IMG/VR virus record: IMGVR_UViG_3300037088_000559
Location: 1,370-65,369 of that record
Direction: 5' to 3' (one strand)
Length of the DNA stretch: 64,000 nucleotides
Source of the DNA: a virus
Taxonomy: Duplodnaviria > Caudoviricetes
Of the stretch, positions 40,596 through 64,000 are shown piece by piece. Positions within the stretch are counted from its first letter, which is position 1. Each line of letters opens with the position of its first letter. Both the position numbers and the translations under genes were made by a program. The notes beneath the pieces are model-generated. The model made no database searches and had not been told where the DNA came from. It saw only the letters and a program-made list of their open reading frames with translations.

Positions 40596-41717
40596 ATGTC
40601 TAAAGTCAAGCGTTTCGTTCTGGCCTTGGTTGCGGCGGCCCTGTTCGCGGGGGCGTCGTTCGGCCAAGACCCTTCCAAGTTGTACAGTGTCAGCACGTAT
40701 CACGGGCCGTTCAGTCCTAGTTACGGCTATACCGCCTTACAGTATCTGGGGCCGTTCTTCGAGATGCCATTCGTGCTTCAGCCGACTGATGCGAACGCAC
40801 CCACGGCAGGAGGCACGGCGGCGCTATCCGTCTCCTACACCTCGGGTAAGATCTTCGTTGGTGGGACAGCGGTGTACGTTACCGCTGGCACGCTCGGCTC
40901 GCTTACCGCCTCCGCCACAAGCTGCTCCGCTCCGACGTTCTCAAGCTGCGATATCGTCTACGCCAATAGTTCGGGAACCGTCGCCTTCACCCAGACGTTC
41001 GCTACGGCCTTGGGGAGCGCAAATTCGATCCTCGCGTTCGTAACGACCAGCGGCACAACGGTCACGGGCGTAACCTATCCCTACGAGGATACGACTCGTT
41101 ACAGTCAAACCGCTGGACCTACCGCGATCACCGGATCACTCACGGTATCGACGACTCTCGGCGTTACGGGGGCGTCAACCTTGACGGGAAACACCTCCGT
41201 CGGAGGGACGCTCGGCGTTACGGGGGCGGCAACGCTGAATAGTACGCTCGATCAAAAAGGCGCAGCGACCTTTGAGAGTACGGTCGTGGGAGAGTTGCAG
41301 CCGGCGGTCGCCGTGGGAGCAACCTTATCCCCAACCTGCGCGCAATCTGGTTCGTTGATTCTCGTCGGAGCGGCCTCGGGTGAAGTCGTGACTCTTCCGG
41401 CTGCTGGCGCGGGAACCGTTGGTTGCTGGTTCGATTTCGTTATCACCGTTTCCAATACTTCCGCTGCCAACGAAATCGCGACCACCGGCTCCAATTACTT
41501 ACTGGGTTCCGTCGCGCATTCCGCTACGGGTATCGCCGCATTAACTTTCTGGGCGGACGGTTCCAGCATTAAAGCGCTTAAAATGGATGGCGCGCACCTG
41601 GGCGGCCTAATTGGCAGCACGCTCCGCGTCGTCGGTATTTCCGCGACGCAATGGGCGATCTCCGGTACGAATCTCTGTACGTCGCCTTGCACCACGGGAT
41701 TCACCGCAACGCCGTAA
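40596..41717 (+). CDS. Putative head fibre/decoration protein with signal peptide
   Basis: MSKVKRFVLALVAAALFAGASFG-QD; TLGVTGA repeats; VTLPAA..G..F.F C-terminal domain. Confidence 0.65.
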   Translation: MSKVKRFVLALVAAALFAGASFGQDPSKLYSVSTYHGPFSPSYGYTALQYLGPFFEMPFVLQPTDANAPTAGGTAALSVSYTSGKIFVGGTAVYVTAGTLGSLTASATSCSAPTFSSCDIVYANSSGTVAFTQTFATALGSANSILAFVTTSGTTVTGVTYPYEDTTRYSQTAGPTAITGSLTVSTTLGVTGASTLTGNTSVGGTLGVTGAATLNSTLDQKGAATFESTVVGELQPAVAVGATLSPTCAQSGSLILVGAASGEVVTLPAAGAGTVGCWFDFVITVSNTSAANEIATTGSNYLLGSVAHSATGIAALTFWADGSSIKALKMDGAHLGGLIGSTLRVVGISATQWAISGTNLCTSPCTTGFTATP

Positions 41718-41744
41718 GCGTGGTAACAGAGAGAGGTTCGTGCT

Positions 41745-41930
41745 ATGGTAACGCTCCTTCCGGCGTCGAGGGCGAGCGAGGATGATAAGGGTAGCAGCGC
41801 CAAGCCTGCCCGCCATATCCGTTTCGCCCTCGATGCGCCCCAAGACGCGAAAAAGGTCAAGGTAAAGGCGAAGTTTACGTTTCCCTCACGGAAAAAGGCG
41901 GATAACGATGAGCGCATGGGCGGCGGTTAA
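41745..41930 (+). CDS. Small basic protein with FTFPSR motif
   Basis: GAGG RBS; 61 aa. Confidence 0.5.
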   Translation: MVTLLPASRASEDDKGSSAKPARHIRFALDAPQDAKKVKVKAKFTFPSRKKADNDERMGGG

Positions 41931-42246
41931 GCGTATCCTCTATCGGCTCGTTCCTCTTTTGGCGTACGTTGATCGCTTGGAGGACGAGGTTGCAGCGTTA
42001 AAATCCCAACGCGATACGTTGCAGGGGTACGTGCTGGAAATGACGAAACGCGCCTACTTCCCCGATTCGTCTCCTCTCTCCCCCGCGGAACCTGCGTCGA
42101 TCCCAACCGACGATCTACGCACCTACGTCGAGCGGCGCGAACGCCAAACTTTGAACGCCCACCTTAAAGGGCTGGGTTTCGCCGACCTCGCCGAGTACGA
42201 GCGCTCGTTAACCGAGGAGCCTGCGCCTACTGAGGGAGCCCGTTAA
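41908..42246 (+). CDS. Hypothetical coiled-coil protein
   Basis: TAATG-coupled to the portal gene. Confidence 0.6.
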   Translation: MSAWAAVKRILYRLVPLLAYVDRLEDEVAALKSQRDTLQGYVLEMTKRAYFPDSSPLSPAEPASIPTDDLRTYVERRERQTLNAHLKGLGFADLAEYERSLTEEPAPTEGAR

Positions 42247-44666
42247 TGGCAACCGCGATCATGGCCCGCCCGTCCGATAACAGCGCCGTAGCCGCGTCTT
42301 CCCCTCCCCAGCCCCAGCGTACAGAAGACGATATCATCAACGAAGGTCTCGATGGGCCCGACGGTCAAGACGAGCTGATGCCCGGCGTAACCAAGGATTT
42401 AGAGGACGCCTTAATCTCGATTATCGTGGACGAGTACGAGCGTGAGTCGTACCCAACGTGGCGTTTCCAGAACCGCGACGTGATGCAGGCGGAGGCTTTC
42501 TGGAAGGATCTCCAGTATAACTTTTACGATTGGGAGACCGATACCTACCGAATCCCCTCGTTAAAGGACGTGACTCATGGAGCCGACGATGGAGAGAAGA
42601 CCAAGTACGTTACTAACCTCTATCGCGCGCTGGGCTGGACCGTCATTAGTATCCTGGGCCAGCGCGTCCCGTCTACTATCTTCCTACCCGTCGATTACAC
42701 GAAGTCCGTTGACGTTCTTGCAGCAGCGGCGGCCTCAGACGTTGCCCCGATCATCGAGCGCAACAACCGCGTAAGTCTCCAGCATATCAAAGCGTGCTAT
42801 TACCTGTTTACGGGGGGACTCTTCGGAGGGTACGTCCGCTGGGTCGCCGATCCTGAGAAGTTCGGATATGAAGCGAACGATGAGGTTGGGCTCGCGAGCT
42901 TCGTACGCTGCCCCAACTGCGGCGAGATGACTCCGCTGGAGAAGGCTCAGCAGGCACAGATGTGTGATTCTTGCGGGCAGCCTCTACCCCCCGATGCCCA
43001 GACGCAGACGATCCAAGTGCCGCGGATCACAGGGGCGCGCAAAACGGCGAAGGGACAGGAAACGATCACGTTGCACGGCCAGCTTGAGCTGCGCCTGCCG
43101 CCGTGGGTGCAGGAGACGGGTGATTGTCCCTATATCGGGCTGGTGAATGAGGTTCATGTCTCCAAGTTACGCCAGCTTTATGGGAAGCGCGCGGAGAAGG
43201 TCCAAGGTGGGTACGGGACGTCGGGAGCGTACGATATCGATGATCGATTCTACCGTTTATCGCTACTCGAACCGTCGATTATCTACAACTCCTTCGCCAA
43301 CACGAACCTCGTAACATTCAAGCGCTACTGGATCGAACCGTCGAGTTTCTATCTTCTACCCGACGACGATAAAAACGGCGCGACGGACGAAAACGGCGAA
43401 CCCGTACGGTCCAAGCGCCAACGTTTACTCGATCTCTTCCCCGACGGCGCATATGTCGCGTTCGTCGGCGGCCAGAATATCATCCTCGATCTGAAGAACG
43501 AATCGAAGCGCGAGCACTGGGATATCTGCCGGGGGATGGAGGGGCATGGGATGTTCACACCTGCCCTCGGCCGTTCCGCCGTGTCGATTCAGAAGCGTCT
43601 CAATGAGTTGATGAATTTCGTCATGGAATGGATCGAGTATAGCGCGGCCGGCGCAGGGACGTTCGTGAACGTCGGGCTGATGAACGTCAACGCTTTAACG
43701 AAGCAGCGTAAGGCGCCGGGTAGGATATACCCCATACGCCTGCCAGGAGGCCAATCACTTGCCAACGCCGTCTACGAGTCCAAGCCCCCGTCGATGGCAG
43801 GAGAAGTGTTTAAGCATATCGACGATCTCACAAGCTTCGGCCAGCAAGTTACCGGAGCAGTTCCCACCGTTTCCGGTGGCACCGATATGTCTCTCAAACC
43901 TACCACGTATCTTGCAGATCGTGAACAAGCTTTGGGAAAGTTGTTCGTCCCCTGGCAGCATCTCCGCGAATTCTGGGCGCGGATGCAATATCTCGCGGTG
44001 AAGTGCTTCGCTGATAACCGCACCGACGATGAGAAGTATAGCTTACCGTCGGCTGATGGCGGCCAGATCCAGGGTGTCGTAAGACTCAGTGATCTATCGG
44101 GGGAATTTACCGCTTATCCCGAGGTCAACGATACGTTCCCACGTTTGTGGCACGATCAACAGGCACAATTTAAGGAGTTGATGAATAGCCAGGATCCGGT
44201 CGTACAGGCGTGGCTCGGCGATGCGGCGAATACGGGATATATCAAGTCGATGCTGGGCTCGCCGCAAATCTTTATCCCCGGCGCCGATGACGTGAAGAAG
44301 CAGAAGCTCGAAACGTCGCAGATGTTGATGGGTCAGCCCGCGATGTCAACCGACCCCGCCACGGGCCAGCAGCAGGTGATTCCGTCGGTGATACCCGATG
44401 AGTACGAGGATAGCCATCAGGAACATGAGCAGGAGGTTAAGCGCTGGGCGGTATCGAACGAGGGTACACGCGCCAAACGTGAGCAGCCGATGGGGTATAT
44501 GAATGTGATCGCCCACGGTAAGATGCACCACGAGATGGGTCTGATGCAGGCGGTTAAGGATCAGGCGACGGTTCAGTCGGCGCAGATGGCGATGGGCGGA
44601 GGGATGCCACAGCCGGGACAACCGGGGCAAGCGGGGCCGCCGCAAGCCGCCGGGCCGCCTAAATAA
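42246..44666 (+). CDS. Portal protein (P22-like) with zinc-ribbon insertion
   Basis: 806 aa between terminase and scaffold; Y.TN.YR, SIQKRLNE, GQQVTGA, Q/P/G-rich tail. Confidence 0.85.
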   Translation: MATAIMARPSDNSAVAASSPPQPQRTEDDIINEGLDGPDGQDELMPGVTKDLEDALISIIVDEYERESYPTWRFQNRDVMQAEAFWKDLQYNFYDWETDTYRIPSLKDVTHGADDGEKTKYVTNLYRALGWTVISILGQRVPSTIFLPVDYTKSVDVLAAAAASDVAPIIERNNRVSLQHIKACYYLFTGGLFGGYVRWVADPEKFGYEANDEVGLASFVRCPNCGEMTPLEKAQQAQMCDSCGQPLPPDAQTQTIQVPRITGARKTAKGQETITLHGQLELRLPPWVQETGDCPYIGLVNEVHVSKLRQLYGKRAEKVQGGYGTSGAYDIDDRFYRLSLLEPSIIYNSFANTNLVTFKRYWIEPSSFYLLPDDDKNGATDENGEPVRSKRQRLLDLFPDGAYVAFVGGQNIILDLKNESKREHWDICRGMEGHGMFTPALGRSAVSIQKRLNELMNFVMEWIEYSAAGAGTFVNVGLMNVNALTKQRKAPGRIYPIRLPGGQSLANAVYESKPPSMAGEVFKHIDDLTSFGQQVTGAVPTVSGGTDMSLKPTTYLADREQALGKLFVPWQHLREFWARMQYLAVKCFADNRTDDEKYSLPSADGGQIQGVVRLSDLSGEFTAYPEVNDTFPRLWHDQQAQFKELMNSQDPVVQAWLGDAANTGYIKSMLGSPQIFIPGADDVKKQKLETSQMLMGQPAMSTDPATGQQQVIPSVIPDEYEDSHQEHEQEVKRWAVSNEGTRAKREQPMGYMNVIAHGKMHHEMGLMQAVKDQATVQSAQMAMGGGMPQPGQPGQAGPPQAAGPPK

Positions 44667-45085: not shown

Positions 45086-46585
45086 ATGGACAACGAAACA
45101 CTCTTCGGTATAAGCACGCCTGTTTTAGACTTCACCCCTTTCGCGAAATATAACCACCTTACGTCGGGCGACGGCGGCGCGGCTCCCGGCGGAGGTGCTT
45201 CGGCGGACCCCGGAGCGGGCGCGGGAGGCGGTGGCGATGCGGGCGGAGGCGCTTCCGACGCAGGCGCGGGCGGCGGCGGGCAACCGGACGCGGAAGCGGC
45301 TTTTCTAAGCGATGCTTCAACCACGCAGGAAGGCGATACCACAACTGCGGCGGAGGAGGTTACGCCCGGCGAAGGTGAGACTGCGGAGACAACGGAGGAG
45401 ATTGATCCGGCCACGGGCTTACCCAAGCCCAAAGCCGCTCCGCAGCTAACCCCCGAGCAGCAGGAACAACAACGGGTCGAGGATGAGACACTCAAAGACT
45501 TCTACGCCGCGACCCCGGCCCTAAAGGAGTTCCTTAAGACGAATCCGACCGCCCGTGCGCAGTTCTTCAAAGCCGCGCAGATGAATCAGATCTACTCGTC
45601 CGTGGACGATGCGCGTATGGCGGCTGAGTACGCTTCCGAGTTATCGAATTTCGATAAGCTGTATGCGTCGGGGAAGCCCGAGGATACCAAAGCGTTCGTC
45701 GATTCACTCTGGACGAATTCGTTGCAGAACCCCGATCAGGCGTATCACCCGACGGCGAATCCCTCACGCGGGAACTTTGAACGCATTGCTACGGCGATGA
45801 CCCAAGTTGGATTCCAGGGTGTACTCGGCAACATCGAGAAGGCGGCCCAGGCGGTGGGTCTGCAACCTGCCCAGGCTCAGCGGGCGCTCGAATACGTCGC
45901 GTCGATGCTGGGGATAAGCGTTAAAGGGTTAAACGCGGTACGGGGCGGGGGAGCGGCGCCAGGCGGGCAACCGGGCGCGCCCAATCCTCAAGACGAAGCT
46001 TTAACCGCGCGCGAGCAGGCTATAATCGCCCGTGAACAAGCTGCATCTACCCGCGATCAGCAAGCGTTTGAATCGAGTGTCTCGACGGCGGTTAATACGC
46101 ACGTCGCGGGCGAAGTCGATAAGCTGCTTAAGCCCGCGGCCGGGGCGCTTGCAAAACAGCCGAAATTCATTCAAGATAATATACGTCAGACGATTGTGTC
46201 CCGTACGGTGAACGCAATCGAGAACGACAAGCCTTTTCAGGTGCGGTTCAATACGGCGGAGCTTCGCGGGGATCGCAGTCCCGCGCACCAGACGGAGTTG
46301 GTTAGCCTCTGGAAGTCGCGCGTTAACGACGAGTTACCCCGGCAGGCTGCATCGGTGCTACAGGAAGCGGGCTTGAGTATTGTGACGGCGAATCAACAGA
46401 GGCTTAACGCCAAACTCGCTGCGGGAGGTAGGCGCGAAGTCCCGTCATCGTCGTCACCAGGACGTGTAACGGCACCCGGAGCAAGGCCAGGGGGACGCGG
46501 CACCCCACCCAACGCCGGCAAGGGCCAAAGCTGGGACGCACACGCGGATAAAGTGTTAGATCGATTCATCGAGACAGGTGAGTAA
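45086..46585 (+). CDS. Scaffolding protein
   Basis: Acidic disordered N-terminus, helical core, short C-terminal helix; directly upstream of the capsid gene. Confidence 0.75.
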   Translation: MDNETLFGISTPVLDFTPFAKYNHLTSGDGGAAPGGGASADPGAGAGGGGDAGGGASDAGAGGGGQPDAEAAFLSDASTTQEGDTTTAAEEVTPGEGETAETTEEIDPATGLPKPKAAPQLTPEQQEQQRVEDETLKDFYAATPALKEFLKTNPTARAQFFKAAQMNQIYSSVDDARMAAEYASELSNFDKLYASGKPEDTKAFVDSLWTNSLQNPDQAYHPTANPSRGNFERIATAMTQVGFQGVLGNIEKAAQAVGLQPAQAQRALEYVASMLGISVKGLNAVRGGGAAPGGQPGAPNPQDEALTAREQAIIAREQAASTRDQQAFESSVSTAVNTHVAGEVDKLLKPAAGALAKQPKFIQDNIRQTIVSRTVNAIENDKPFQVRFNTAELRGDRSPAHQTELVSLWKSRVNDELPRQAASVLQEAGLSIVTANQQRLNAKLAAGGRREVPSSSSPGRVTAPGARPGGRGTPPNAGKGQSWDAHADKVLDRFIETGE

Positions 46586-46625
46586 CAGGTACAAGGTAAA
46601 AGAGGAGTCAAAACTTACCACACGT

Positions 46626-46648
46626 GTTGTGGAGGTTAACCGCAATTT
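46626..46648 (+). repeat. 23-bp element, copy 2, in the capsid leader
   Basis: Identical to the reverse complement of 21910-21932. Confidence 0.85.
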
Positions 46649-46665
46649 CGTACGAGGTTCTATCA

Positions 46666-47937
46666 ATGGCCCAAGCAACAGCGGATGTCGTCGGCCTGCA
46701 ACTCGAAAAGGTGCGCCGCAAGCTCCCCGAGTTGTTTGAATACGAAGACACCCTTTTCAGTACTATCCAGAACCGCCAGGACGTGGAGAAGGTCTCCAGC
46801 CGCGTGACCCGCGTCCCGCTGCAAGTACGTCCCGGTTCGCGTTTTGGTATCGTTAATCTTGCGGGTGGACCGCTCGGACGCGGCACCGGCACCCACTATG
46901 ACTTCGCGTCTCTCGCACCTATTGCTTCCCGCATCGCGATCGAGATCAACGACGATGCTCTGGCGCAAACCGACGGTGAACCCAAAGCGATCCGTAAGCT
47001 TCTGGCACAGGAAATCAAGAACGGTATGCGCGAGTTTCGGCGCCAACTCAACGCCCAGCTTCAAACCGCGGGCGATTGCGTTCAGGCGACCGTCTCCGCC
47101 GCGACCGCTACCACCATCACCGTCAACAACGCGCCGTTCTACGCTCAGCTTCTCCGCGCGCAGCAGATCATCCAAGTGTATGATTCCACCATCACCACCA
47201 ACAAGGGATCATGCACGATCCAGTACATCGACTACCCCAACAACGTCCTCACTGTTGATGCCACGCCCACGGGCGGGGGTGGGGTGATCTCAACCGACGT
47301 GATCCTGCTTGAAGGTGTTTCCGGTGCCAACCCCGTCGGGTACTTTGGCATTCCCTATCACATCTCACCCTCGGCGATCGGCACGTGGCTGAATATGAGC
47401 CGCGTAACGACTCCCGAGATCCGCGCCAGTAACTTCGATGTCGGTGGAAACGCCCTCACTACGTTCCCGATACGCCTCTTGCTCACCAAGATCAGGCAGC
47501 GTATTGCGGGATCGGCGTCAGCGGGCGCGCTTAAGTCACTCCGCGCCCACCTCCACGATACCCAGGCGGCCGCGTACGAGGAGCTGGCCGTACTCGTCAC
47601 CAAGATCGAGAAGGGCTCGGGGAACGAGTCGATCGATATGCTGTTTGGCGATCAGCGTATGGCTGGAGTACCCCAGATGCGCGATATCCATGCGGCTCGC
47701 AATCGAATCGATTTCCTCCACCTCGATTCGTGGGGACGCGTTGAGTCTTTACCCGTGGACTTCATCAAGAAGCCCGACGGGACGTATATCGAGCGCCCGA
47801 TTGATTCGGCCACGGGATCGCCGATTGCGGCGATTCTGTTCTGGATCGTGTGGTTCGGCCAGTTTTTCGTCGAGAACCCCGCAACGCAAGGAGATATCAC
47901 AACCTTGGCAATCGCTGCCGGTTACGACGCGTTATAA
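46666..47937 (+). CDS. Major capsid protein
   Basis: 423 aa after the scaffold; HK97-like layout with an inserted beta domain and C-terminal NPATQGDI; GAGG RBS. Confidence 0.85.
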   Translation: MAQATADVVGLQLEKVRRKLPELFEYEDTLFSTIQNRQDVEKVSSRVTRVPLQVRPGSRFGIVNLAGGPLGRGTGTHYDFASLAPIASRIAIEINDDALAQTDGEPKAIRKLLAQEIKNGMREFRRQLNAQLQTAGDCVQATVSAATATTITVNNAPFYAQLLRAQQIIQVYDSTITTNKGSCTIQYIDYPNNVLTVDATPTGGGGVISTDVILLEGVSGANPVGYFGIPYHISPSAIGTWLNMSRVTTPEIRASNFDVGGNALTTFPIRLLLTKIRQRIAGSASAGALKSLRAHLHDTQAAAYEELAVLVTKIEKGSGNESIDMLFGDQRMAGVPQMRDIHAARNRIDFLHLDSWGRVESLPVDFIKKPDGTYIERPIDSATGSPIAAILFWIVWFGQFFVENPATQGDITTLAIAAGYDAL

Positions 47938-49017: not shown

Positions 49018-49584
49018 ATGGACAGACGCAACTTTCTGAGAAATCTCGCTCTCCCTGCGACGATTACGGCGGCGGGTTTATTGGTTCCGTCTCTACGCCT
49101 GCGCTCCTACTTCTTTACTCGCGACTGGCGGTCGCGGGATCGAACGCCGGTAACCGCAACGTTCAAGATGCTCCCCGACGGCTCGTGGGAGTTTGTATCA
49201 GCGCAAGGGGCGAGGTTATCGGAGCACGGGAAACTAGTTCCGCCGTGGGGTTGGGATAGGCAGGAATGGCGGCTAGACGATTATGCGTTCTATCGTTCGC
49301 AGAATCTCGGCGGAGAACGTCGAGATGAAGTTCAGCTTATTTACGTCCCGCAAAACGAGGTGCATCACTACAGTGTTGTTCCCGCGAGTAAATACCATTA
49401 TGTGAACGGCAGGCTACATGTTGCGCCGTTCGGCTCCGGGGCCAAATTCCCTAGCCGTGGCCCGAATCGCAAGAGCTGGGGGTCTGAGGTTTTCGCGGAG
49501 GATAATCCTGTTGCTCTCTGGCTATCCGGGGCAAACGATCTGGAAGAAGAGAAGAAATGGGTCGAGGAGGTTATCTCGATCTAA
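49018..49584 (+). CDS. Protein with twin-arginine-like N-terminus
   Basis: MDRRNFLRNLALPATITAAGLLVP; AAGGAGG RBS. Confidence 0.6.
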   Translation: MDRRNFLRNLALPATITAAGLLVPSLRLRSYFFTRDWRSRDRTPVTATFKMLPDGSWEFVSAQGARLSEHGKLVPPWGWDRQEWRLDDYAFYRSQNLGGERRDEVQLIYVPQNEVHHYSVVPASKYHYVNGRLHVAPFGSGAKFPSRGPNRKSWGSEVFAEDNPVALWLSGANDLEEEKKWVEEVISI

Positions 49585-55200: not shown

Positions 55201-55574
55201 TCGACGACGGTCTCGCCGTCGATTCGTTTTACGAGACCTCGTATGCGCGCGCCACCCCTAACGGTACGTCGCTGTTCGGCGGAATCGCGTATACGCTGGC
55301 GGGATCGGGAACGTTGCTCAACTCACTGTTACCGCTGGGATCGCAAGCGGGTGATTCGCGCGAGGCTATTCTCCAGCCGCAGACTATGGACCTGCCGTTA
55401 ACGCGCGATTTGGAAGTTTACGCCGATCTGGAGACGGAGCGGGCGCGCGCGCGCTTCGAGACGAATCATCTACAACCCGCCGTGGAACAGAATCCCCCAA
55501 CTGCGTGCGATTACTTTCAGGTGAGGCGGGTGGGGATATACGCCGCGCCGTGGGCTCCCCAGAGGGTGCATTAA
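52254..55574 (+). CDS. Tail nozzle (T7 gp12/P22 gp10-like) with large inserted beta domains
   Basis: GGL..NIRF..G.V.SRPG N-terminus; IRFSDP, IHKERS, KLSQEIQ propeller-type segments; GTG start after GAGG. Confidence 0.75.
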   Translation: MFVGFKATNFEKLGGLFSFLFTEDVPDGFSPALSNIRFKPGAVESRPGLGSGAWSKPAHTFYGLSQFLDNLGTQHNLTLDESGNIDQQLGMGVTSVALGVCLPGSRLSTTSLNNRHYMAFYQPEVLPGGSVVALDSLGNLDPVAPLGPATKDHLGSTGYITAGSPTITNVTQIQTWCLGDLIGDSQNAIVGTTNPTTLAYVIAVDYVNNTLTVSQNAVNASNRGPDFLSATLFYPLLYVQDDVLPGQIIAAALVNPGTLYHAGDVLMPTALALGPISLYAINAPGTAYAISDTFLLNNPLYPASVLAQGTVTSVDSSGVVLAFYLTTFGTLYSVATGYVAGTTFGAGHGLTIDVTAIGTGGAGTGGTITINTVDAITGAILTYTANFAGSYNWYPGASFALAGGHGIGATLTITQVADSTYVSGEISAGLHGIAVSFRTRSGAYTEPCALCFWEAAGNRKVVVSYANAQFDLLNTYDPTYTALTFFFTQADDLHIYQIPASIVGASNLLTVIFDFYDTDLTGGDLQDNLYDNERLSDQAGLTQYNSRLVTWGGLATLDLAGMDLLGILEPGSHAFKVPYGWAPGTNNHAALYWEDSVAGQNPGARPGVIILADGATATVGEIWQSEAASVMRPLTSYTVRLWLKQMGGMNAGALAINLIGTNIGGGTGATAGFVIPYTSLTTSWQQFEGAICTASDIPVGTVNNQVAVDLRLRIALTGTAGPFGTGVIISRLQIYPTAAPYDASVIRFSDPYNADRFDGISGFQQVTKDDGERVTSCRTLRWYFYIHKERSMHVTFDDGQNPPSLWTSNLVDSSAGAASPNATLATESFIISAARPGAYVFFGGKPTKLSQEIQTTWDRINWTYASVIHIALDPRLHIVYMLVPLDAETIPSAALILDYTEGFGQEDEPGGRKWGFDQYPRNVGHTGVEFVTPHAPVLPHTINVLSILIGESPTHTQSTWFAGTSIASPGTAKVYLLGAQGDLDDGLAVDSFYETSYARATPNGTSLFGGIAYTLAGSGTLLNSLLPLGSQAGDSREAILQPQTMDLPLTRDLEVYADLETERARARFETNHLQPAVEQNPPTACDYFQVRRVGIYAAPWAPQRVH

Positions 55575-55575
55575 A

Positions 55576-58080
55576 ATGACAACGTTAAAACGCTTGCTTA
55601 CGATCCTCGCATGGTTTGCGCTTGCGGTGCCGTTATTCGCCACGCAGATTACCCTCAACGCTAATCTCGCGGATATCACGGGTACGGCGGTGACTTCCAA
55701 GGCGTACATGACCTTCACGCTTCAGAACACCGTGACGCAGATCCCGGTGGTCACGGGAGGCGGGGCGGTTATAGTACCTGCCGGTCCTCAATATCCCGAT
55801 AACACGGGCCTCGTAAGCGTCTCGCTGACCGCCAACGACACGATCACGCCGATCGCGACGTATTATAGGATATGTGTCTTCCAGAATGGTTTACAGTATC
55901 GCTGCAACGATTATCTGATCTCGACCGTTCACGGGCTAACCCAAGTTCTATCGACGCTTACGCCGCTCAATCCTCCGCCCGCCCCCGCGCCGCCGCTCGC
56001 GACCGTACCCCCCAACGAGGGAGGCACGGGCGCAACATCAAATCCCCCGGTGCACGGTGTCGCTGTTGCCGAGGGTGCGTTGCCATTCAACTTTATACCG
56101 CCGACGGGTTTGAATCAGTGTTTTATCGGCAGCGCCGGGAGCGATCCGTTGTGGGGATCGTGTTCCGGGTTACCATCGTCCCCGCAGATTGGGAACGGCG
56201 TGACGATGCTGGACGCCGCATCGTTCGCGGGGGGTTCGTCCACGGGTGGGATACAGGAGGCGATTAACGCCGTAACATCACCGGGTGAGGTGTACGTTTC
56301 GGCGCTGGTTAACGCGACGGCTGCGATCACGATGAAAGCGGGTGTAAATGTCCGGTGTCTTGGGGATAACGTCGGCGTGACCTTCACGGGGGCGACGGAT
56401 GGGTTCGTTTGGCCCAGCACGGCGGGACAAGCGCGTTTATACGGGTGCCGGGTTATCGCCGGAAACGCCTCGAACGGCAAGGCGCTGGATATCGAGGACG
56501 CGATACTGGCGGCGGGGAACGTGGTGGTAGAAGACGTGCGGGTTACGTCCGACAACCCCCCGACGCACGTATGGGCTTACGGGACGTTCCTTGAGAACGC
56601 GCTTCTGGAGCGGTTTGTCCGGGTCTTTTTTGAATCGGCGACGGTTCATATCCATACCGAGGGGGTATCGAATAGCGTAGACTTCGATTCGATCAACCTT
56701 ACGTCGAATATCGCCGGAGTGACCTACGTGGATATCCAAGGAGGCGAACCTATAACCTTTTTGGGTGGGGAGATCGAGGGAAACGCGTCGGGTGAGCTGG
56801 TAAAGGTCACGCAGCCGGGGGCGGCGGCGACGTTGGTGCGCTTCATCGGAACGGCCTTCGAGAACGCCAACGCCGCGGGGATAGGGATACACGCGAACGG
56901 CGCGGAGGTTGACTGTACGAGTTGTCAGATTCATGCGGCGACGCAGTTAGGATTCGTGATCGGCGATGTGTCGGTGACGCACCATTGTAAGGTTGTTGGT
57001 GGAGGGATATCGTCGTGGACACTGGGGGCGAACGCTTCCGAGAACACGATCCAGGGGTACGATTACACAGGGTCAGATCCGGTGGATAGCAGCACGGGAT
57101 TCAACGTACTCCTCAATAATAACCGCGTCACGGATCTTGCCTTCTACCCTACGCAGTCTTTACTTGTGGGGCCGGGCGGGTTTAAGTTCGTACCGCAGTC
57201 CACGGCCTCGACCCCGGTTCAATTCTTGCAGGCGACTGGAAGCACCCACGACCTCACGCAATGGCTCGATTCCGGCAGCGTGGTGCAGGCGGGGGTTACC
57301 AACGCGCTTCAAATATACTCGAATGCCGGATTCACCGTGGGCGCCAATACGATCACCAACGGCGGAGGGAGCCTTACGTTCGCCAGTCTCCTCCCCATCT
57401 TCTCGCAGAATAACGCGAACGTAGGGACACTGATCCCTATCCATCGTTTCCTTGCTCCTAATGCGCCCCTAGCGACGGCGGGTTTAGGTCCGTATATCAA
57501 CATCGGAATCGCCAGCTCGACGGACAACTCCGGCGCGGTGGGGTTCGCGAATCTGGGCGTGGGCACTACCGCTAATTATATGTGGCTGGGGATATACGGG
57601 CGTACTCCCGCGCTTTCCATATTTGGCTCGGGTGTGGGTATCGGAACGGGAGCAACCGCCCCACCGGCCGGTGGGTTGGGGGTCTCGGGGAATATGCTGG
57701 CGGGCGGAATAGTGGATGGTTTAACCTTTGTAGGTGTTACGACGGGGCCGGCGATTACCTTGGGCGCGACGTATAAGTCCGAGGATGTGTTCAACCAAGA
57801 CCCCACGCCTGCGGAAGCGGTTACTTTTGCCTTGCCTCCTGCCGAGAAAGGGCGGAAGGAGTGCGTGGCAAATAGCGATGTAGCAGGTACGCCCGACACA
57901 GGTGTGCTTCGAGTTGACGCCGACGGCGCGGGTCAGTATATCCACTACAATGGCGCCCGGAGTTTAACGGGAGGATACATTATCTCGAACGGCGCTGCCG
58001 GAGATAAGGGTTGTTTTATAGCCACCAGCGCTACGGACTGGGAATTCTATCCGCAGCTCGGGACGTGGACACTGCACTAA
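55576..58080 (+). CDS. Tail fibre/spike with beta-helix and signal peptide
   Basis: Hydrophobic N-terminus ending LFA-TQ; fibre-like N-domain (SVSLTANDTITP..TYY); GGTGA; IQEAINA beta-helix start. Confidence 0.75.
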   Translation: MTTLKRLLTILAWFALAVPLFATQITLNANLADITGTAVTSKAYMTFTLQNTVTQIPVVTGGGAVIVPAGPQYPDNTGLVSVSLTANDTITPIATYYRICVFQNGLQYRCNDYLISTVHGLTQVLSTLTPLNPPPAPAPPLATVPPNEGGTGATSNPPVHGVAVAEGALPFNFIPPTGLNQCFIGSAGSDPLWGSCSGLPSSPQIGNGVTMLDAASFAGGSSTGGIQEAINAVTSPGEVYVSALVNATAAITMKAGVNVRCLGDNVGVTFTGATDGFVWPSTAGQARLYGCRVIAGNASNGKALDIEDAILAAGNVVVEDVRVTSDNPPTHVWAYGTFLENALLERFVRVFFESATVHIHTEGVSNSVDFDSINLTSNIAGVTYVDIQGGEPITFLGGEIEGNASGELVKVTQPGAAATLVRFIGTAFENANAAGIGIHANGAEVDCTSCQIHAATQLGFVIGDVSVTHHCKVVGGGISSWTLGANASENTIQGYDYTGSDPVDSSTGFNVLLNNNRVTDLAFYPTQSLLVGPGGFKFVPQSTASTPVQFLQATGSTHDLTQWLDSGSVVQAGVTNALQIYSNAGFTVGANTITNGGGSLTFASLLPIFSQNNANVGTLIPIHRFLAPNAPLATAGLGPYINIGIASSTDNSGAVGFANLGVGTTANYMWLGIYGRTPALSIFGSGVGIGTGATAPPAGGLGVSGNMLAGGIVDGLTFVGVTTGPAITLGATYKSEDVFNQDPTPAEAVTFALPPAEKGRKECVANSDVAGTPDTGVLRVDADGAGQYIHYNGARSLTGGYIISNGAAGDKGCFIATSATDWEFYPQLGTWTLH

Positions 58081-58141
58081 ACGGGTGACAACGCACTCAA
58101 TCCCTATGTTAAAATGTTACTGTATCGAAGCGAGGCTCACA

Positions 58142-61100
58142 ATGAACAAACGGCGTAATCGACTTATTGGCTTGGGAACGTTGGCGATCCTGCTCCTCGC
58201 TTCGTTGAGCTTCGGCCAGAACCTGCCCGTTGCAGGCAATCAAACCGATCGTATCCAACCCCACACGATCCCTCTACCAACGGGGCGTTTAGTAGGGACG
58301 GTTTACACGACAACGAACGCCGCCTCGGCGACCGATTGCACCGCGGGAGGCGGTTCAACGGTGCATATGTGCCTGTGGAACGGTGCGGCGTGGGTAACGG
58401 CGAGTGGGAGTGGCGGCGGCGTCGGGACGGTTACGAGCGTCGGTCTGGCGGGAACGCCGAGTCAAGTCACGGTCACAGGAGCGTCGCCCATTACCGGATC
58501 GGGAAGCTGGACGCTGAGCCTTCCGAGCACAATCAATGTGAACGCGCAGACGGCAACAGCGCTGGCGGCTGCCGGTACGGACTGTGGACCGAATCAATAT
58601 CAATACGGCTCGGATGCCAGCGGGAACGCTCTTTGCACAACTTTGCCTACACAAACAGGCTCTCAGTATATCGCCCCGCAGCCTGTCACCGGATGCGGAG
58701 TTGAATGGACAGGGCTGCTTACATTCACCGTGGGGGCCTGCACTTACACGATTGGAGGAGTTACACAGACCAGCGCGGTGACGGCCTTGACGCTCACCGC
58801 CGCGAATGGCAGCAATCCTAGAATCGAGCTTATCTACATCGATGGGGCCACAAACACCGTAACTTTCGATGCGGGAACTCCCGCGCCAAGTCCTGCCGTC
58901 CCGACTGAAGACCCCAGCACTACTCTGGAATTGACTTCGGTTTACGTGGACACCAGCGCCACGGTGCCCACCAACGCCACGAAGTACGACATCTATCACT
59001 CGGACAGCGCCGATTGGACGGCCACCACAGGGGGAACGAACAGCGCTCGCGTTAACACGAATTCAACCAGCAACCCTTACACGGGCGATCCAGTGGAAGT
59101 CCTGCACGACATTGAGTTCGGCACCAGCGGGGTCGTGAACAGTACCACCTACGCGCAATTGGCCTATTCCTCGGCAGTGGACATCAGCACGGTCAACAAT
59201 CTGGTTTTCTATATCCGAAACAAGGCCCTATGGGTCGCTACTCGTTCTATCACAATTCAGTGGCTCTCGACGGGCACCGCAAAGGGGCAAGCGGTCGTTC
59301 TGAGCAACGGAGCATTCGGCTTCAACGCCACAACTAACTTCACGACCTACCAGCAGATTTCTATTCCGACTTCGATATTTGGAATCGCGGGGGTTGCGGT
59401 CAATGACTTGCGCTTCACGGTGAGCGGCACGGGCACAGCACTGACCGGCTTTTACATTGACGATGTGACCCTGCAAGGTGGCAACACTGGCCTTCCCCTC
59501 CCCGCCACGCTGATGAATTTCAAGGGAACGTGGAATTCCACGGCATCTTATCAAGCGAACGATACAGTGGTGAGCGCTGGCATCGGATATGTAGCTTTGG
59601 TCCCCAACGTCAACGTTGCGGTCACGACAACGGCAACCTGGGCGGCGGTGGGCAAGGCTGGAACAGTTACTTCCGTCGCCGTGAGTTCGCCTCTCGGTGG
59701 TGGTCCAATTACAGGTTCAGGGACTTTAACTTGTGCCACTTGCGCAATCGGACCAGGAACCTCGACAGCTAATCACTTAGCAAAATTCTCTGGGGTTGAT
59801 GGTTTAACCTTGGCTGATGGTGGAATAATCCCTGCTGGCAACCTTACCGCTACCACGCCGACGGCGAACGGCGTGATGACAGGCGCGGGAACCCAAGCCC
59901 TCAATGTAACCGCTGCTGGGAAAACGGGACAGGTTTTTACCTCGACGAATGCCGCGCAACCGGCCTTCGCGTCACCCGGCATCGGTAAGGGCAACGGAGG
60001 GGCAGATGTTACCGGGGCTTCTTATCTCCTTAAGTGTGACAGTAGCACGGCGATTCTTGACCGTGGAACCGAGGTGGTATTCGCCTCGGGTGCAAGTACG
60101 CCGGTTGTGCCTGATCCTACCGACACAGGTTGCGGCGCGAGCTACGCCGTCAAGGTTCTGGACAAAAATGCGGGTTCCCTTGTCTTCGGACGTGAGACGA
60201 GCGCTACGACGTTTGATGTGTACGGTGGAGCATCTACACTGCTCGCGCAAACATCTTTTACTTTGACCAATAGCCAGTCGGCTGTCGTGGCTGCCGACAG
60301 CACGACCCATTACATCGTGACGGTTACGGGCGGAGCCAGCGGCCTCAGTAGCGTCGGCCTCACCACGCCCACTGACATCCTCACCACGACGGGCTCGCCA
60401 TTGACCAGCAACGGCACGCTGGCGGTGACAAAGGCCATCCAATCACCTAACACTTTTTGGCGTGGCGGCACTTCGGCTTCAACTGGTAATATTGTTCAAT
60501 CCAATACGGGATTTGCAAACGCCCCCAGTACATTGACGGTTAGTTTCAATAATCCCAATACAGCAGGGGACCTTTTGATTGTTGCGTCTGCCGCAGATGC
60601 TTATTCGCAGACAATTTCAAGTACCAACGAAGGAAGCTCCTGGACGGCCCTACCTCAGCAAGTAGCCGGGTTTAGTTTAATGGTTTGGTATACCTGCAAC
60701 GCTGTAGGGGGGGCCAATTCTGTCACTGTTTCTGGACTCGGCGGGAATGCTACCGCTATTGCTATTGCTGAAATATCCGGGAATCCCACGTCAGCCTGTC
60801 TTGACCTAAGTGTTAAAGATGGCGGATACCCGCGTTCTACTTTAAGCGTCACAACCGCTGGTACTGCAGGACAAGCAACGGAGCAAGTAATTGCCTTCGG
60901 GAGTACCGCCAATGGCTTTTATTCTGGAGGATTTCTCGCCTCACCCCCGCCTCTGTCTCCCGGACCTGGATATCTACTGGTAAACAGTGCCTTAGACATG
61001 AGCGACAATCCCGGCTTATATTTGCCTGTCTATACTCTTTCGACGAATACCGGATTGAGTGGGACTCAAACAGCAGCGATAACCTGGAATCCGGCTTCCA

Positions 61101-61576
61101 CAGGACATCTGGATAATACACAATCAGGTTTGTCGCTTTACCTTCTAACTTTCAAATTAAATACGTCTAACAGTAGTATTCCTCCAGTTTTCGGCCCTCT
61201 TGTTGCTGCGGATATGCCCGCGCATACTCCGATAGCTGCTTTTGTGTCTACTTCTACGGCACAAACAACAGCCTTGACAGCATCATCAATGACGACAGTG
61301 GGTTCTGTGGCAGCCCTCTATGAATTCAAGGGTGAAATCAACTGCACCACGTCAAACGCCACGGCGACTGCAATTCTCACGGTCGGCTATACCGATACCT
61401 CAAACACAGCGCAAACCCCATCGGTAACAGCGGCATGTACAACGCTTGGCACGCTTTCCGTGGGAAATCTTGACCTGCTTATTCGGGCGAAAACGAATAC
61501 GACAATCACTTACGGCGTGGCCGTCGCAAACTCGCCCACTTACGATGTTGATGTTAGACTAGAACAATTACCTTAA
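58142..61576 (+). CDS. Modular tail fibre/adhesin with signal peptide
   Basis: Ends SFG-QN; GTVTSV repeats; FKGTWNSTASYQAND module; AGDLLIV domain. Confidence 0.75.
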   Translation: MNKRRNRLIGLGTLAILLLASLSFGQNLPVAGNQTDRIQPHTIPLPTGRLVGTVYTTTNAASATDCTAGGGSTVHMCLWNGAAWVTASGSGGGVGTVTSVGLAGTPSQVTVTGASPITGSGSWTLSLPSTINVNAQTATALAAAGTDCGPNQYQYGSDASGNALCTTLPTQTGSQYIAPQPVTGCGVEWTGLLTFTVGACTYTIGGVTQTSAVTALTLTAANGSNPRIELIYIDGATNTVTFDAGTPAPSPAVPTEDPSTTLELTSVYVDTSATVPTNATKYDIYHSDSADWTATTGGTNSARVNTNSTSNPYTGDPVEVLHDIEFGTSGVVNSTTYAQLAYSSAVDISTVNNLVFYIRNKALWVATRSITIQWLSTGTAKGQAVVLSNGAFGFNATTNFTTYQQISIPTSIFGIAGVAVNDLRFTVSGTGTALTGFYIDDVTLQGGNTGLPLPATLMNFKGTWNSTASYQANDTVVSAGIGYVALVPNVNVAVTTTATWAAVGKAGTVTSVAVSSPLGGGPITGSGTLTCATCAIGPGTSTANHLAKFSGVDGLTLADGGIIPAGNLTATTPTANGVMTGAGTQALNVTAAGKTGQVFTSTNAAQPAFASPGIGKGNGGADVTGASYLLKCDSSTAILDRGTEVVFASGASTPVVPDPTDTGCGASYAVKVLDKNAGSLVFGRETSATTFDVYGGASTLLAQTSFTLTNSQSAVVAADSTTHYIVTVTGGASGLSSVGLTTPTDILTTTGSPLTSNGTLAVTKAIQSPNTFWRGGTSASTGNIVQSNTGFANAPSTLTVSFNNPNTAGDLLIVASAADAYSQTISSTNEGSSWTALPQQVAGFSLMVWYTCNAVGGANSVTVSGLGGNATAIAIAEISGNPTSACLDLSVKDGGYPRSTLSVTTAGTAGQATEQVIAFGSTANGFYSGGFLASPPPLSPGPGYLLVNSALDMSDNPGLYLPVYTLSTNTGLSGTQTAAITWNPASTGHLDNTQSGLSLYLLTFKLNTSNSSIPPVFGPLVAADMPAHTPIAAFVSTSTAQTTALTASSMTTVGSVAALYEFKGEINCTTSNATATAILTVGYTDTSNTAQTPSVTAACTTLGTLSVGNLDLLIRAKTNTTITYGVAVANSPTYDVDVRLEQLP

Positions 61577-61587: not shown

Positions 61588-61917
61588 ATGTCAGCAATCA
61601 CAGTCAACAAACTCGTTAACGATCAGCTTCTCATCAGCGACCTTATTGTGTTGGACAAAGATGGGAAGTCTGCGCAGGATGTCACAACCAAACTGAATAT
61701 CGTTTCTGGACCTGCTGGAGGGCTTGGCCCGCTCATTATGACAATGAGCGGATTAGTTTCCGTCTGCACCGTTGCGGGGGCATATCAAATTACGCTGACA
61801 TCGACCAATTCCGCAGGCTCGATCACCTCGGACGCGGCGGGAGATACTGATGGGACGGTTGATGCAATCATTGTGGTTATTCCTGCTCCAGCTTCTCAGA
61901 CCTTCAAACTCTCGTAA
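61588..61917 (+). CDS. Small beta-rich (Ig-like?) protein
   Basis: AAGGAG RBS. Confidence 0.55.
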   Translation: MSAITVNKLVNDQLLISDLIVLDKDGKSAQDVTTKLNIVSGPAGGLGPLIMTMSGLVSVCTVAGAYQITLTSTNSAGSITSDAAGDTDGTVDAIIVVIPAPASQTFKLS

Positions 61918-61969
61918 GGTCAAGGCGCCAAAGAAGCAAAGCTGGCGGTACTCATAGGAGAGGTCTACT

Positions 61970-63436
61970 TTGAAGCGAACGATTCTCATTCTGGCGATGC
62001 TCTTGTGGGCGGGGACGCTGCACGCAACCCAATACTTTATCGACTTCGCCACGGGTGCCGACACCAACAACGGCACCGCGAAGGGTACGCCGTGGAAGCG
62101 CGCGCCGGGGATGACAGGCTGCGCTAACAACTGCGCCACCTATTCGCATTCGGCGGGCGACCAGTTCATCTTCAAGGGCGGGGTGACGTGGGATTCGACC
62201 ATCGCGCAGTGGGCCATCTCGAACAGCGGGACCAACGGCAATAATGACTACTATGGGGTGGACAAAACGTGGTACGCAGGCGGCTCTTGGGTGCAACCTA
62301 TCTTCGATGGAGGAAGCAAGAACCCTCCCGATGTGCAATATGGGTACTTTTTCATTGAAGGAAACTACATAACCCTCGACAACCTCAAGCTCCAGAACAT
62401 CGGGACGGCAGGGGTGAGCCCCGGAAATTACGCTGTCTGGATTGAAAATCATCATGACATCCTTATCGAGAATATGAGTTTTGCCACGGAAAGCTGGCTC
62501 AGCATTTATCTCAGCCAGCAGAACTCGGGAACTATCTCCAACTTTGAATTCAAGAACAACGACTTTACGAAATGCTCCATGGGGGTCGCCGGGGCTGTGA
62601 CTGTAACAGGAGCGGTCATCAGCAACCTTCTCATCCATGATAATTGGTTTCACGATTTCCACGACCAGCTTGCCAGTAGCCAGCATGGAAACGGCGTCTA
62701 TCTGTGGTCTTCGTCAGGCACCGATGCGACTGAGTATTTCGATCAGGTGAGCATCTATAACAATTCGTTCTATGGGGATTTCTCGTCTTACACTCCAGGA
62801 GACAGTGCGTCACACATGAGTTCCTTCATCTGGCCCGGAGCGACGGCGGCTGGCACGGCCTACGTTTACAACAATCATATTACCTACTCTGCAGCGAATA
62901 ACATCGGAGGCGCATTCCTGGCAGGTGGGACTTTCAGCGGCTTCACTCCCACCGGCAGTGTCTATCTGTACAACAATTCGATGATTCTTGACGCGAACAC
63001 AAACTACTTTCTCTATTCCAACGGGGTCGGAACGCTCACCGTCGAGAACAATGCCATCGTGGGGAGCAGCACCTATGCCTATACGGTGGGGGCCACGGTT
63101 CCGGTGACCACGTTCATCAGTGATTACAACGACTTCTACAACTGGACGGGTGGGTCAAGCTTCGCTGTTGTCGGCGCGAGTAATTATACCTACACGCAGT
63201 TCAAGGCAATCCCGCAAGAGGCGCATGGCCTCAATACCTCGCCACTTTTCGTGTCATCGACCGACTTGCACTTGCAGGCGGGTTCGCCGCTCATCGGCCA
63301 AGGGGTAAATCTCTCGGCAGTGTTTACAACCGACGCAGCCGGGGCAGTCCGCACGGTGCCTTGGGACATGGGAGCCTATATCCCTGGCGTTACGCCACCT
63401 CAAGCGCCGCTGATGATTAACCTGTTGAATCAGTAG
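61970..63436 (+). CDS. Secreted-type right-handed beta-helix (pectin lyase-like) protein
   Basis: Signal ending TLHA-TQYFID; G.DTNNG..TPWK; IYNN/VYNN repeats; DLHLQAGSP...WDMGAY end. Confidence 0.8.
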   Translation: MKRTILILAMLLWAGTLHATQYFIDFATGADTNNGTAKGTPWKRAPGMTGCANNCATYSHSAGDQFIFKGGVTWDSTIAQWAISNSGTNGNNDYYGVDKTWYAGGSWVQPIFDGGSKNPPDVQYGYFFIEGNYITLDNLKLQNIGTAGVSPGNYAVWIENHHDILIENMSFATESWLSIYLSQQNSGTISNFEFKNNDFTKCSMGVAGAVTVTGAVISNLLIHDNWFHDFHDQLASSQHGNGVYLWSSSGTDATEYFDQVSIYNNSFYGDFSSYTPGDSASHMSSFIWPGATAAGTAYVYNNHITYSAANNIGGAFLAGGTFSGFTPTGSVYLYNNSMILDANTNYFLYSNGVGTLTVENNAIVGSSTYAYTVGATVPVTTFISDYNDFYNWTGGSSFAVVGASNYTYTQFKAIPQEAHGLNTSPLFVSSTDLHLQAGSPLIGQGVNLSAVFTTDAAGAVRTVPWDMGAYIPGVTPPQAPLMINLLNQ

Positions 63437-63452
63437 TTTCAAGGAGGGCAAC

Positions 63453-63623
63453 TTGCCCACAGAGGACGGTGAGGCCATTGACATCACAACACCTCCGGGC
63501 AAAAACGAAGGTCCTGGCTTTGGCACTGGCGTTAAGTTGCTATGGTGCAGCCCGACCGGGATTTGCCCAGATTGTCCCGCGCAGGGGCGTGGTACTGCAC
63601 GCGGGATAGAGAAATCCACGTGA
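63453..63623 (+). CDS. Possible small Cys-containing protein
   Basis: AAGGAGG then TTG; 56 aa. Confidence 0.3.
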   Translation: MPTEDGEAIDITTPPGKNEGPGFGTGVKLLWCSPTGICPDCPAQGRGTARGIEKST

Positions 63624-63637
63624 TAAATGGAGGCACG

Positions 63638-64000
63638 ATGAAGAATCTAGCTCTGTTGATTGGGCTTATCATATCGAGCGTGGTCTGGACCTGCGCTCAG
63701 ACTCCGCATGGTGTCCTGGTGACGTGGACGAATCCCTCCATTCCGACTGGGGGCGCAGCGCTTGCGGGGCTCAACCTTTTCCGAGCGGTGCAGACGGCTG
63801 GCGTCTGTGGCACCTTCACGCAGTTGAACGCGAACCCAATTCCTGGGAGTTCATATCTTGACCCGGCGGCGGGACTGTCACTCACAACCAGCTACTGCTA
63901 TTCCGCCACCGAGCAGGATATCAATGGGAACATGGGGGCACCAGGAACAGGAACCATTACAACCCCGGTGGCATGGCCCGTCAACCCCGGAGCCTCGGCG
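63638..64000 (+). CDS. 3'-truncated FN3-like protein with signal peptide
   Basis: MKNLALLIGLIISSVVWTCA-QTPHGVLVTW...NLFR...YLD...YCYSAT; GGAGG RBS; open to the window end. Confidence 0.7.
   Translation, partial: MKNLALLIGLIISSVVWTCAQTPHGVLVTWTNPSIPTGGAALAGLNLFRAVQTAGVCGTFTQLNANPIPGSSYLDPAAGLSLTTSYCYSATEQDINGNMGAPGTGTITTPVAWPVNPGASA

Follow-up and report, generated by a model that had tools for sequence, protein, structure and literature searches.

Predicted Sec leaders on fibre- and spike-type proteins of a divergent tailed phage suggest a possible periplasmic route to the virion

Introduction

Assembly of tailed phages is taught as a wholly cytoplasmic process. Exported virion proteins are known from the Ff phages, whose g3p and g8p, the receptor-binding protein among them, carry cleavable leaders, cross the inner membrane and form disulfides in the periplasm. 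Tailspikes can attach in vitro to finished particles, which makes a late arming of tailed virions physically possible. Here, we describe five genes, 40596, 55576, 58142, 61970 and 63638 (named after their first nucleotide), that each begin with a predicted Sec leader in a 64,000-nucleotide stretch of a tailed-phage genome (hereafter the window; bases 1370-65369 of the single 65,369-base IMG/VR contig IMGVR_UViG_3300037088_000559). Ff particles, which are extruded through the envelope, are made without a terminase and without a head or tail, whereas the phage studied here encodes a terminase and would be filled in the cytoplasm.

Use of the host Sec machinery by late tailed-phage proteins has been described before. 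Secreted and signal-anchor-release endolysins, such as Lys44 of Oenococcus phage fOg44, use it to accumulate outside the cytoplasm before lysis, in the account given in the relevant part of PMC6116005; as presented there, those proteins are lysis enzymes, whereas the leaders reported here stand on proteins of fibre, tailspike and capsid-spike type. The sections of PMC10367356 devoted to Porphyromonas gingivalis prophages report five functionally uncharacterised genes bearing Sec/signal peptidase I (SPase-I) leaders and Gln at position +1, read there as host-surface modifiers adapted to the host secretion system. Compared with the genes in those sections, ours are of fibre/spike type, have a likely acidobacterial host and belong to a broader trait, with about 100 leader-bearing proteins among the best 150 relatives of 58142. 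Signal peptides are also counted, but not placed, in the portion of PMC5723332 that deals with two Bacteroides phages. In the survey text of PMC13507307, 3261 of 64,678 prophage carbohydrate-active enzymes (CAZymes), about 5%, carry signal peptides; 61970 fits best with such phage-borne, glycan-active secreted proteins. The survey says nothing on fibre leaders, because tail fibres and structural proteins were, by its own description, removed on purpose.

Ordinary tail fibres and tailspikes, such as P22 gp9, CBA120 TSP4 and the Pa223 capsid spike, have in common with the proteins described here a late-operon position, carbohydrate-binding or spike folds and modular shuffling, but the known examples are leaderless and join the particle in the cytoplasm, whereas ours are leader-bearing. 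We found no description of Sec leaders on tailed-phage fibres in the full-text literature, a search that covered neither subscription journals nor supplementary tables.

Five genes with predicted Sec leaders

An earlier note on this DNA had proposed that five genes start with a basic-hydrophobic segment followed by a plausible cleavage site, and both the translations and a leader scorer bear this out. The genes and the main conserved domain are as follows, a hyphen after the leader marking predicted cleavage.

40596..41717, + strand: 40596 pre-protein, 373 aa; predicted leader residues 1-23, N-terminus MSKVKRFVLALVAAALFAGASFG-QDPS; fibre-like middle and C-terminal spike-type domain
55576..58080, + strand: 55576 pre-protein, 834 aa; predicted leader residues 1-22, N-terminus MTTLKRLLTILAWFALAVPLFA-TQIT; tailspike-like centre at residues 214-597
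58142..61576, + strand: 58142 fibre-like pre-protein, 1144 aa; predicted leader residues 1-25, N-terminus MNKRRNRLIGLGTLAILLLASLSFG-QNLP
58634..59686, + strand: conserved domain of 58142, residues 165-515; predicted beta-sandwich, carbohydrate-binding-module-like
61970..63436, + strand: 61970 pre-protein, 488 aa, TTG start; predicted leader residues 1-19, N-terminus MKRTILILAMLLWAGTLHA-TQYF; predicted right-handed beta-helix
63638..64000, + strand, last 7 codons beyond the window: 63638 pre-protein, 127 aa; predicted leader residues 1-20, N-terminus MKNLALLIGLIISSVVWTCA-QTPH; crosses the circular junction

In each protein, an n-region with one to five basic residues and a net charge of +1 to +4 precedes an uncharged hydrophobic core that, at 14-16 residues, is shorter than a membrane anchor would usually be; the core of 40596 is rich in Ala and Gly. 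The predicted cleavage sites are of the small-x-small type: SFG-Q in 40596 and 58142, LFA-T in 55576, LHA-T in 61970 and TCA-Q in 63638. The Leu at -3 in 55576 and 61970 is permitted, if less typical, no Pro occurs at +1, and three of the five leaders have Gln there. All five fail as lipoprotein leaders, there being no Cys at +1, and all lack the twin-arginine translocation (Tat) motif S/T-R-R-x-F-L-K, which the KRRNRL of 58142 does not fit.

We scored every six-frame open reading frame (ORF) of at least 80 aa in the window with a home-made scheme, a crude stand-in for SignalP that takes account of the charge of the n-region, the hydropathy of the core and whether positions -3 and -1 are small. 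The five genes scored 4.75-6.09. Two other ORFs fell within that range, the lipoprotein-like 8291-8941 (-) and an 81-aa membrane ORF at 7480-7725 (-), and a downstream start of ORF 17778-18143 (-) reached 4.7. Two further high-scoring ORFs were taken as false, as they overlap or lie antisense to real genes in other frames. As controls, none of the 58 ORFs of three leaderless related loci (L011, L012 and L007) was flagged, and a 400-kb portion of a Bryobacterales metagenome-assembled genome (MAG), G001, gave 28 flagged ORFs out of 375.

Shine-Dalgarno-like motifs (AAGGAG, GAGGGTG, GCGAGG, TAGGAGAGG and TGGAGG) stand 4-8 nt before the five starts, and nothing of the kind precedes the GTG at 58085, an upstream alternative. 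The mapped starts of 40596, 55576, 58142 and 61970 are also those of the proteins on record from the source gene callers, and the ATG of 55576 lies one nt past the stop of ORF 51909-55574. Initiation downstream of the hydrophobic segments, which the earlier note had named as a refuting outcome, is therefore unlikely. Taken together, the translations and scores support real-looking leaders of the Sec/SPase-I type.

The fibre- and spike-type proteins

An exhaustive HMMER search of our protein library with 58142 returned 1779 cluster representatives at E <=1e-3, all of which matched residues ~165-515. Among the best 150 of these 1779, the scorer called 99 leader-bearing, 36 leaderless and 15 partial. 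For tree-based comparisons, four rows with truncated starts were moved by eye to the leader-bearing class and two unclear rows were dropped, giving 100 leader-bearing and 28 leaderless sequences in a relabelled set of 130 rows. The leaderless relatives mostly have classic polar fibre N-termini, so that the same domain occurs on leader-bearing and leaderless fibre proteins alike. On a FastTree phylogeny of the 130 domain sequences, leader state changes at least 9 times (15 before relabelling and dropping of rows); if the periplasmic route proposed below is real, the leader would thus act as a movable element that shifts a fibre from one assembly route to the other. The AlphaFold2 (AF2) model of the domain has a predicted local distance difference test score (pLDDT) of 87.5, and Foldseek matched it to the carbohydrate-binding module (CBM) 7t7y CBM8 (E 4.3e-7; template-modelling score TMt 0.79) and, more weakly, to 5w6h_A, CBA120 TSP4 (E 8.9e-6). 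The domain had no match in 50,697 GenBank phage records.

In the AF2 model of 40596, residues 3-18 form an isolated N-terminal helix; the middle, which has fibre-like repeats, is of low confidence, and the C-terminal part reaches pLDDT ~90. VIA-align paired the C-terminal domain (~230-373) with 9ny6_C, the Pa223 capsid spike (Z 10.2, root-mean-square deviation 2.5, 100 residues aligned), with 9f4a_Le, a KP1 baseplate chain (Z 9.8), and with 7rej_A, the N-terminal part of CBA120 TSP4 (Z 9.7); the top matches span Z 9.4-10.2 and the next rows stand at Z 6.5. The modelled domain is of the capsid-spike/tailspike-XD type. By tblastn, it also matches a leaderless, Cys-free ORF of 143 aa directly after the capsid gene in two Rhizobium phages, including RHph_I1_23. 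Leaders are present on 15 of 17 close relatives of 40596 (59-74% identity over the C-terminal third), and the distant relatives, fibre-like proteins of 602 aa, are leaderless.

The sole relative found of 55576, P0006, is 55% identical across the central ~380 residues (214-597). Its N-terminus is unrelated to that of 55576, yet is again basic-hydrophobic and ends in Gln. The P0006 gene sits in a 35-kb viral contig (L001) directly after a siphovirus-type tail module, which comprises a major-tail-protein match, a long ORF that resembles a tape measure and a distal ORF of 735 aa. Look-alikes of 55576 in the ESM Atlas include P22-type tailspikes, all scoring below 0.9 and taken as a lead only.

At least these three proteins, 40596, 55576 and 58142, are virion-type receptor-binding or spike proteins. 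General library scans of the window proteins revealed no other fibre-like, leaderless ORF in this genome.

The beta-helix protein 61970 and the small protein 63638

Gene 61970 is set apart from the fibre-type genes by its relatives. Pfam Beta_helix scored below cut-off (19.7 vs 25.9) and NCBIfam choice_anch_Q at cut-off (25.1 vs 25). The NCBIfam scan detected no C-terminal sorting domain of the type IX secretion system (T9SS), PEP-CTERM or similar type, choice_anch_Q being its sole match. ESM Atlas look-alikes score 0.98 and come mostly from Acidobacteriota. Of 110 homologs, 71 were flagged as leader-bearing, and several unflagged rows among the 52 homologs listed also have a leader when inspected by eye. 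In this family, the leader is joined directly to a conserved mature start, (A)TYYIDF, so that the cleavage point appears fixed. The protein had no match in the 50,697 GenBank phage records. We place 61970 in a family of secreted beta-helix proteins; it may be an exported enzyme and does not have to belong to the virion.

No family was found for 63638 in PHROGs, Pfam or NCBIfam. In the same three libraries, four of the five leader proteins have no family at curated thresholds, and none of the leader-bearing proteins matched a lysin family.

Related loci and the likely host

A scan of IMG/VR with the fibre domain of 58142 yielded 13 loci, and a leader is present on 7 of the 12 fibre homologs whose N-terminus is available. 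The other genes of the leader-bearing contigs are unrelated to this phage; two of these contigs have clear major-head matches. On the same contigs, between two and four additional large leader-bearing ORFs stand in a row in distal, fibre-type position (for example, 710, 782, 224 and 632 aa in L004 and 558, 746, 1485 and 647 aa in L006), and in L002-L006 most large distal ORFs are leader-bearing. Since leaders recur in the relatives of 58142, 40596 and 61970 and on these unrelated viral contigs, the predicted pattern is not a chance one, and the leader trait is much wider than one genome.

Three loci of lower GC content (L010-L012, GC 0.40-0.46) are distant relatives of the phage, sharing the capsid protein (38% identity), a homolog of the structural protein 51909 and the gene order capsid, 232-aa protein, large structural protein, fibre and very large (1578-aa) protein. 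Their fibre has the same domain as 58142 and is leaderless, and no leader was seen on their other ORFs. Because a leaderless fibre shares both domain and position with 58142, the predicted leader is an addition to a fibre gene that is in other respects ordinary, and L010-L012 would make a useful natural control group for the trait.

A smaller alignment of the fibre domain (A2) was scanned against 185,579 species genomes. It gave three chromosomal matches, all in Bryobacterales/Bryobacteraceae MAGs, where the copies have as neighbours either an integrase, as in L015, or, as in L017, a DNA methylase together with an IS110 transposase. The domain occurs in one of 301 Acidobacteriota genomes and in one of 201 genomes of the order searched; this rarity fits a mobile, phage-borne gene rather than a housekeeping one. 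As a side observation, another leader-bearing ORF, 261-276 aa long, comes directly after the leader-bearing fibre homolog in L015 (9755-12335), L017 (9533-12144) and the viral locus L003 (8571-11938); such an ORF thus follows two of the three chromosomal copies, and those in L015 and L017 have no Pfam family.

The host is probably a soil member of the Acidobacteria and likely Bryobacterales-like. In the 400 kb of MAG G001, the residue that most often follows the predicted cleavage site is Gln (8 of 28, against a background of 3.7%), and the predicted phage leaders resemble the leader style of this candidate host genome, including Gln at +1. As the Q-rule is described as Bacteroidetes-specific in the passage on it in PMC5837995, this excess of Gln in a Bryobacterales MAG may deserve a look of its own. 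A Bacteroidota host, considered for the Gln at +1, was rejected as the best guess because the phage uses Shine-Dalgarno motifs, all three chromosomal matches are in Bryobacterales and the G001 genome has a preference of its own for Gln at +1.

The leaderless structural genes

The leader block lies in the late structural region, where a leaderless structural protein, 51909, is followed after a 1-nt gap by 55576. Neighbouring features are listed here.

46624..47937, + strand: major-capsid-like protein, leaderless; weak match to phrog_14242 (E 4.5e-4), 38% identity over the whole length to an L010/L011 ORF
51909..55574, + strand: virion structural protein, 1221 aa, leaderless; phrog_3287 (E 9.9e-9), directly upstream of the leader-bearing block
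61588..61917, + strand: ORF 61588, 109 aa, leaderless, between two leader-bearing genes

Homologs of 51909 hold the same position in L010-L012 and L005; the related-locus search of viral contigs recovered no relative of the 1221-aa protein. By the scorer, the large late ORFs 42246, 45086, 46624, 47963, 49621, 51044 and 51909 are without a leader, in line with the earlier view that the capsid gene and the putative portal, adaptor and nozzle genes lack one. Of the late genes, library matches identified only the terminase, 46624 (weakly) and 51909. The earlier view missed an exception among the smaller ORFs. ORF 49018-49584 (+), 188 aa, in the head-tail block, has a strong AAGGAGG ribosome site, no Cys and a Tat-like leader consisting of MDRRNFLRNL (RRNFLR) and a mildly hydrophobic stretch; it has no PHROGs or Pfam family.

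A possible route through the periplasm

We consider it likely, from the leaders and their recurrence, that the leader-bearing proteins are exported through Sec with cleavage. In the proposed mechanism, the ribosome would start at the mapped codons and the leader would take the chain through SecYEG, after which SPase-I would cut behind SFG, LFA, SFG, LHA and TCA. In the periplasm of the acidobacterial host, the mature proteins would take up their fold and probably acquire disulfides, while heads and tails would be built and filled in the cytoplasm without the exported parts. Fibres and spikes could then wait in the periplasm and dock once the action of holin and lysis machinery opens one compartment to the other, a step we infer. 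The beta-helix protein 61970 and the small 63638 may be exported helpers, for example a glycan-cutting enzyme, rather than virion parts.

Late arming is the likeliest use of the leaders, because at least three of the proteins are of virion-type receptor-binding or spike character. It is preferred for 40596, 55576 and 58142, as the genome offers no other fibre-type protein and relatives have their fibre in this position. Even so, export followed by arming of the virion with these three falls somewhat short of probable, and the wider proposal, that a set of uncultivated tailed phages sends fibres, tailspikes and capsid spikes through Sec for disulfide maturation in the periplasm and joins them to the particle at lysis, is a shade more tentative. 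The earlier suggestion of exported fibres and decorations holds in that fibre-, tailspike- and capsid-spike-type proteins have real-looking leaders that recur on unrelated N-termini, and fails in treating the five proteins as one class, given that 61970 belongs to a secreted family found also on contigs of bacterial MAGs.

If true, the assembly of these tailed phages would be divided between two compartments, a route that has a fair chance of being new. Were receptor-binding proteins routinely exported in some hosts, particles would be armed only at lysis; the fibres could be disulfide-stabilised for soil life and could also strip or mask receptors on the dying cell. The trait matters for annotation as well: soil-virome surveys score signal-peptide-bearing, glycan-active phage genes as auxiliary, and one of them, as its methods text has it, sets fibres aside (PMC13507307). 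A leader-bearing fibre can be misfiled either way. In addition, the leader trait provides a concrete, testable handle on phages of Acidobacteriota.

Cysteines and other points that weigh against the route

The earlier note had seen closely spaced Cys pairs in all five proteins. This is true of four: mature 40596 has 6 Cys in three neighbour pairs, 55576 has 11 in five pairs plus one, 58142 has 14 in seven neighbour pairs and 61970 has 3, one C-x3-C pair and one single. For 63638, with 2 Cys thirty residues apart, the description is loose. Among the best 150 of the 1779 relatives of 58142, Cys density is 1.43% in leader-bearing and 0.65% in leaderless proteins (Mann-Whitney p 1.5e-9). In the relabelled domain set, 60 of the 100 leader-bearing rows have a pair at C185/C200 and none of the 28 leaderless rows does, the leaderless L011 fibre having Gly and Ala at these positions. 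The raw counts, made before relabelling, gave Fisher p 5e-5 for the association of Cys pair and leader. A Cys pattern that goes with leaders is also seen in the 40596 family alignment.

Strong as the raw association is, it lends weak support, and several results weigh against a periplasmic route to the virion. An independent-pairs test on the tree gave no Cys/leader co-variation, the pair state differing in fewer than about 1 of 5-10 usable pairs, so that few events may lie behind the association. Leaderless virion ORFs have Cys clusters too, 47963 holding 8 Cys. The Cys pattern is compatible with export and is no evidence beyond shared ancestry; since the tree-based test gave no support, we did not use the association as evidence. 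Self-BLAST of the five proteins found no shared N-terminal docking domain, and the mature N-terminus of 58142 aligns in register with that of the leaderless L011 fibre (19-45/19-45) without significance (E 1.2). The 10-kb flanks of the chromosomal fibre-domain copies contain no structural module, so a virion is not required for the proteins to persist. Members of the 61970 family occur also on contigs between 200 kb and 1.6 Mb in length, among which are named bacterial MAGs. Finally, the capsid protein was not found in the 201 genomes of the order of G001, and because no related prophage turned up in these 201 genomes the host assignment is indirect.

Alternative explanations

The strongest alternative, which we regard as less likely than late arming, holds that the exported proteins are not virion parts and act on the envelope of the infected or lysogenic cell by cutting or binding glycans, masking receptors or serving as secreted auxiliary enzymes, in which case the virion would bind its host by the 1221-aa protein or another part. 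It fits 61970 and 63638 best, the former being in a secreted beta-helix family that extends to named bacterial MAGs. The chromosomal fibre-domain copies point the same way, as they lie in small mobile remnants whose flanks lack structural genes, and a second leader-bearing ORF follows two of the three; a CBM-like fold, moreover, suits any glycan binding. Published parallels are the P. gingivalis Q-rule phage genes, read as host-surface modifiers in the prophage sections of PMC10367356, and the signal peptides on 5% of prophage CAZymes in the survey figures of PMC13507307. However, this explanation would leave the phage, and L002-L006, almost without a fibre-type protein for the particle. It also sits poorly with a leader-bearing gene occupying the fibre place of leaderless relatives and with a C-terminal domain of 40596 that matches parts solved in virions, and it would commit ~8 kb, 12% of the genome, to non-virion proteins. 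For 40596, 55576 and 58142, we therefore prefer late arming of the virion.

That the proteins are not exported at all, with the hydrophobic segment acting as a trimer core, a tail plug or a transient inner-membrane tether akin to a signal-anchor-release segment, is improbable. In its favour, textbook tailed-phage assembly is cytoplasmic, the Ala/Gly-rich core of 40596 recalls signal-anchor-release segments and the Cys/leader link is unsupported once ancestry is allowed for. Against this stand the 14-16-residue cores, basic n-regions and small-x-small sites in dozens of relatives whose leaders are otherwise unrelated, the exact leader/mature junction kept in the 61970 family, the Gln at +1 that mirrors host pre-proteins and the leaderless orthologues that do without such a segment. 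An annotation artefact, with true starts downstream of the hydrophobic segments, is barely credible: ORF 58085-61576 and ORF 63542-64021 do offer several in-frame candidate starts, but Shine-Dalgarno motifs precede the leader starts and none precedes the alternatives examined, the 55576 ATG follows the preceding stop by 1 nt and the leaders are kept across relatives.

The genome and other features of the window

The window is nearly the whole genome. The contig ends overlap by 132 bases with one mismatch (window 63869-64000 vs contig bases 1-132), which indicates a circular or terminally redundant genome of ~65.2 kb. Two further features are listed below.

36596..38245, + strand: terminase large subunit; phrog_979 (E 1.4e-35), marks a tailed double-stranded DNA phage
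40119..40134, + strand: terminator-like hairpin and T-run, followed by a ~460-nt non-coding gap before gene 40596

The best terminase matches by tblastn in the 50,697 GenBank phage records are below 31% identity, and PHROGs, Pfam and NCBIfam scans of the window ORFs left nearly all other proteins without a family; on both grounds the phage, an uncultivated tailed one, is very divergent. A sigma-70 promoter scan gave fewer sites than shuffled sequence and was uninformative.

Several ORFs outside the leader block merit a record. At the expected portal place, 42246-44666 (+), 806 aa, contains a zinc-ribbon-like CxxC...CxxC motif (Cys 222/225/240/243), with Pfam Zn_ribbon_3 below cut-off and no portal family match. 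The late ORFs 2159-6607, 961-2157, 351-944 and 45086-46585 (all +) have zero Cys and no family found, and include a 1482-aa protein that begins with PPPPPPGF-type repeats; they are possibly internal or ejection proteins and a scaffold. On the minus strand, 8291-8941 is a helical, lipoprotein-like ORF with the lipobox VTA-C near the small membrane ORFs 9029-9238 (-) and 7480-7725 (-). No family was found for it or for these neighbours, and the set could be a spanin or lysis set or include a superinfection-exclusion lipoprotein. Pfam assigns 9225-9851 (-) to the 5'-deoxynucleotidase NT5C (E 8.8e-6), 10387-10878 (-) to the Dam-type adenine methyltransferases (E 6e-17) and 38317-38688 (+) to a YspA/SLOG-family domain (E 1.2e-9).

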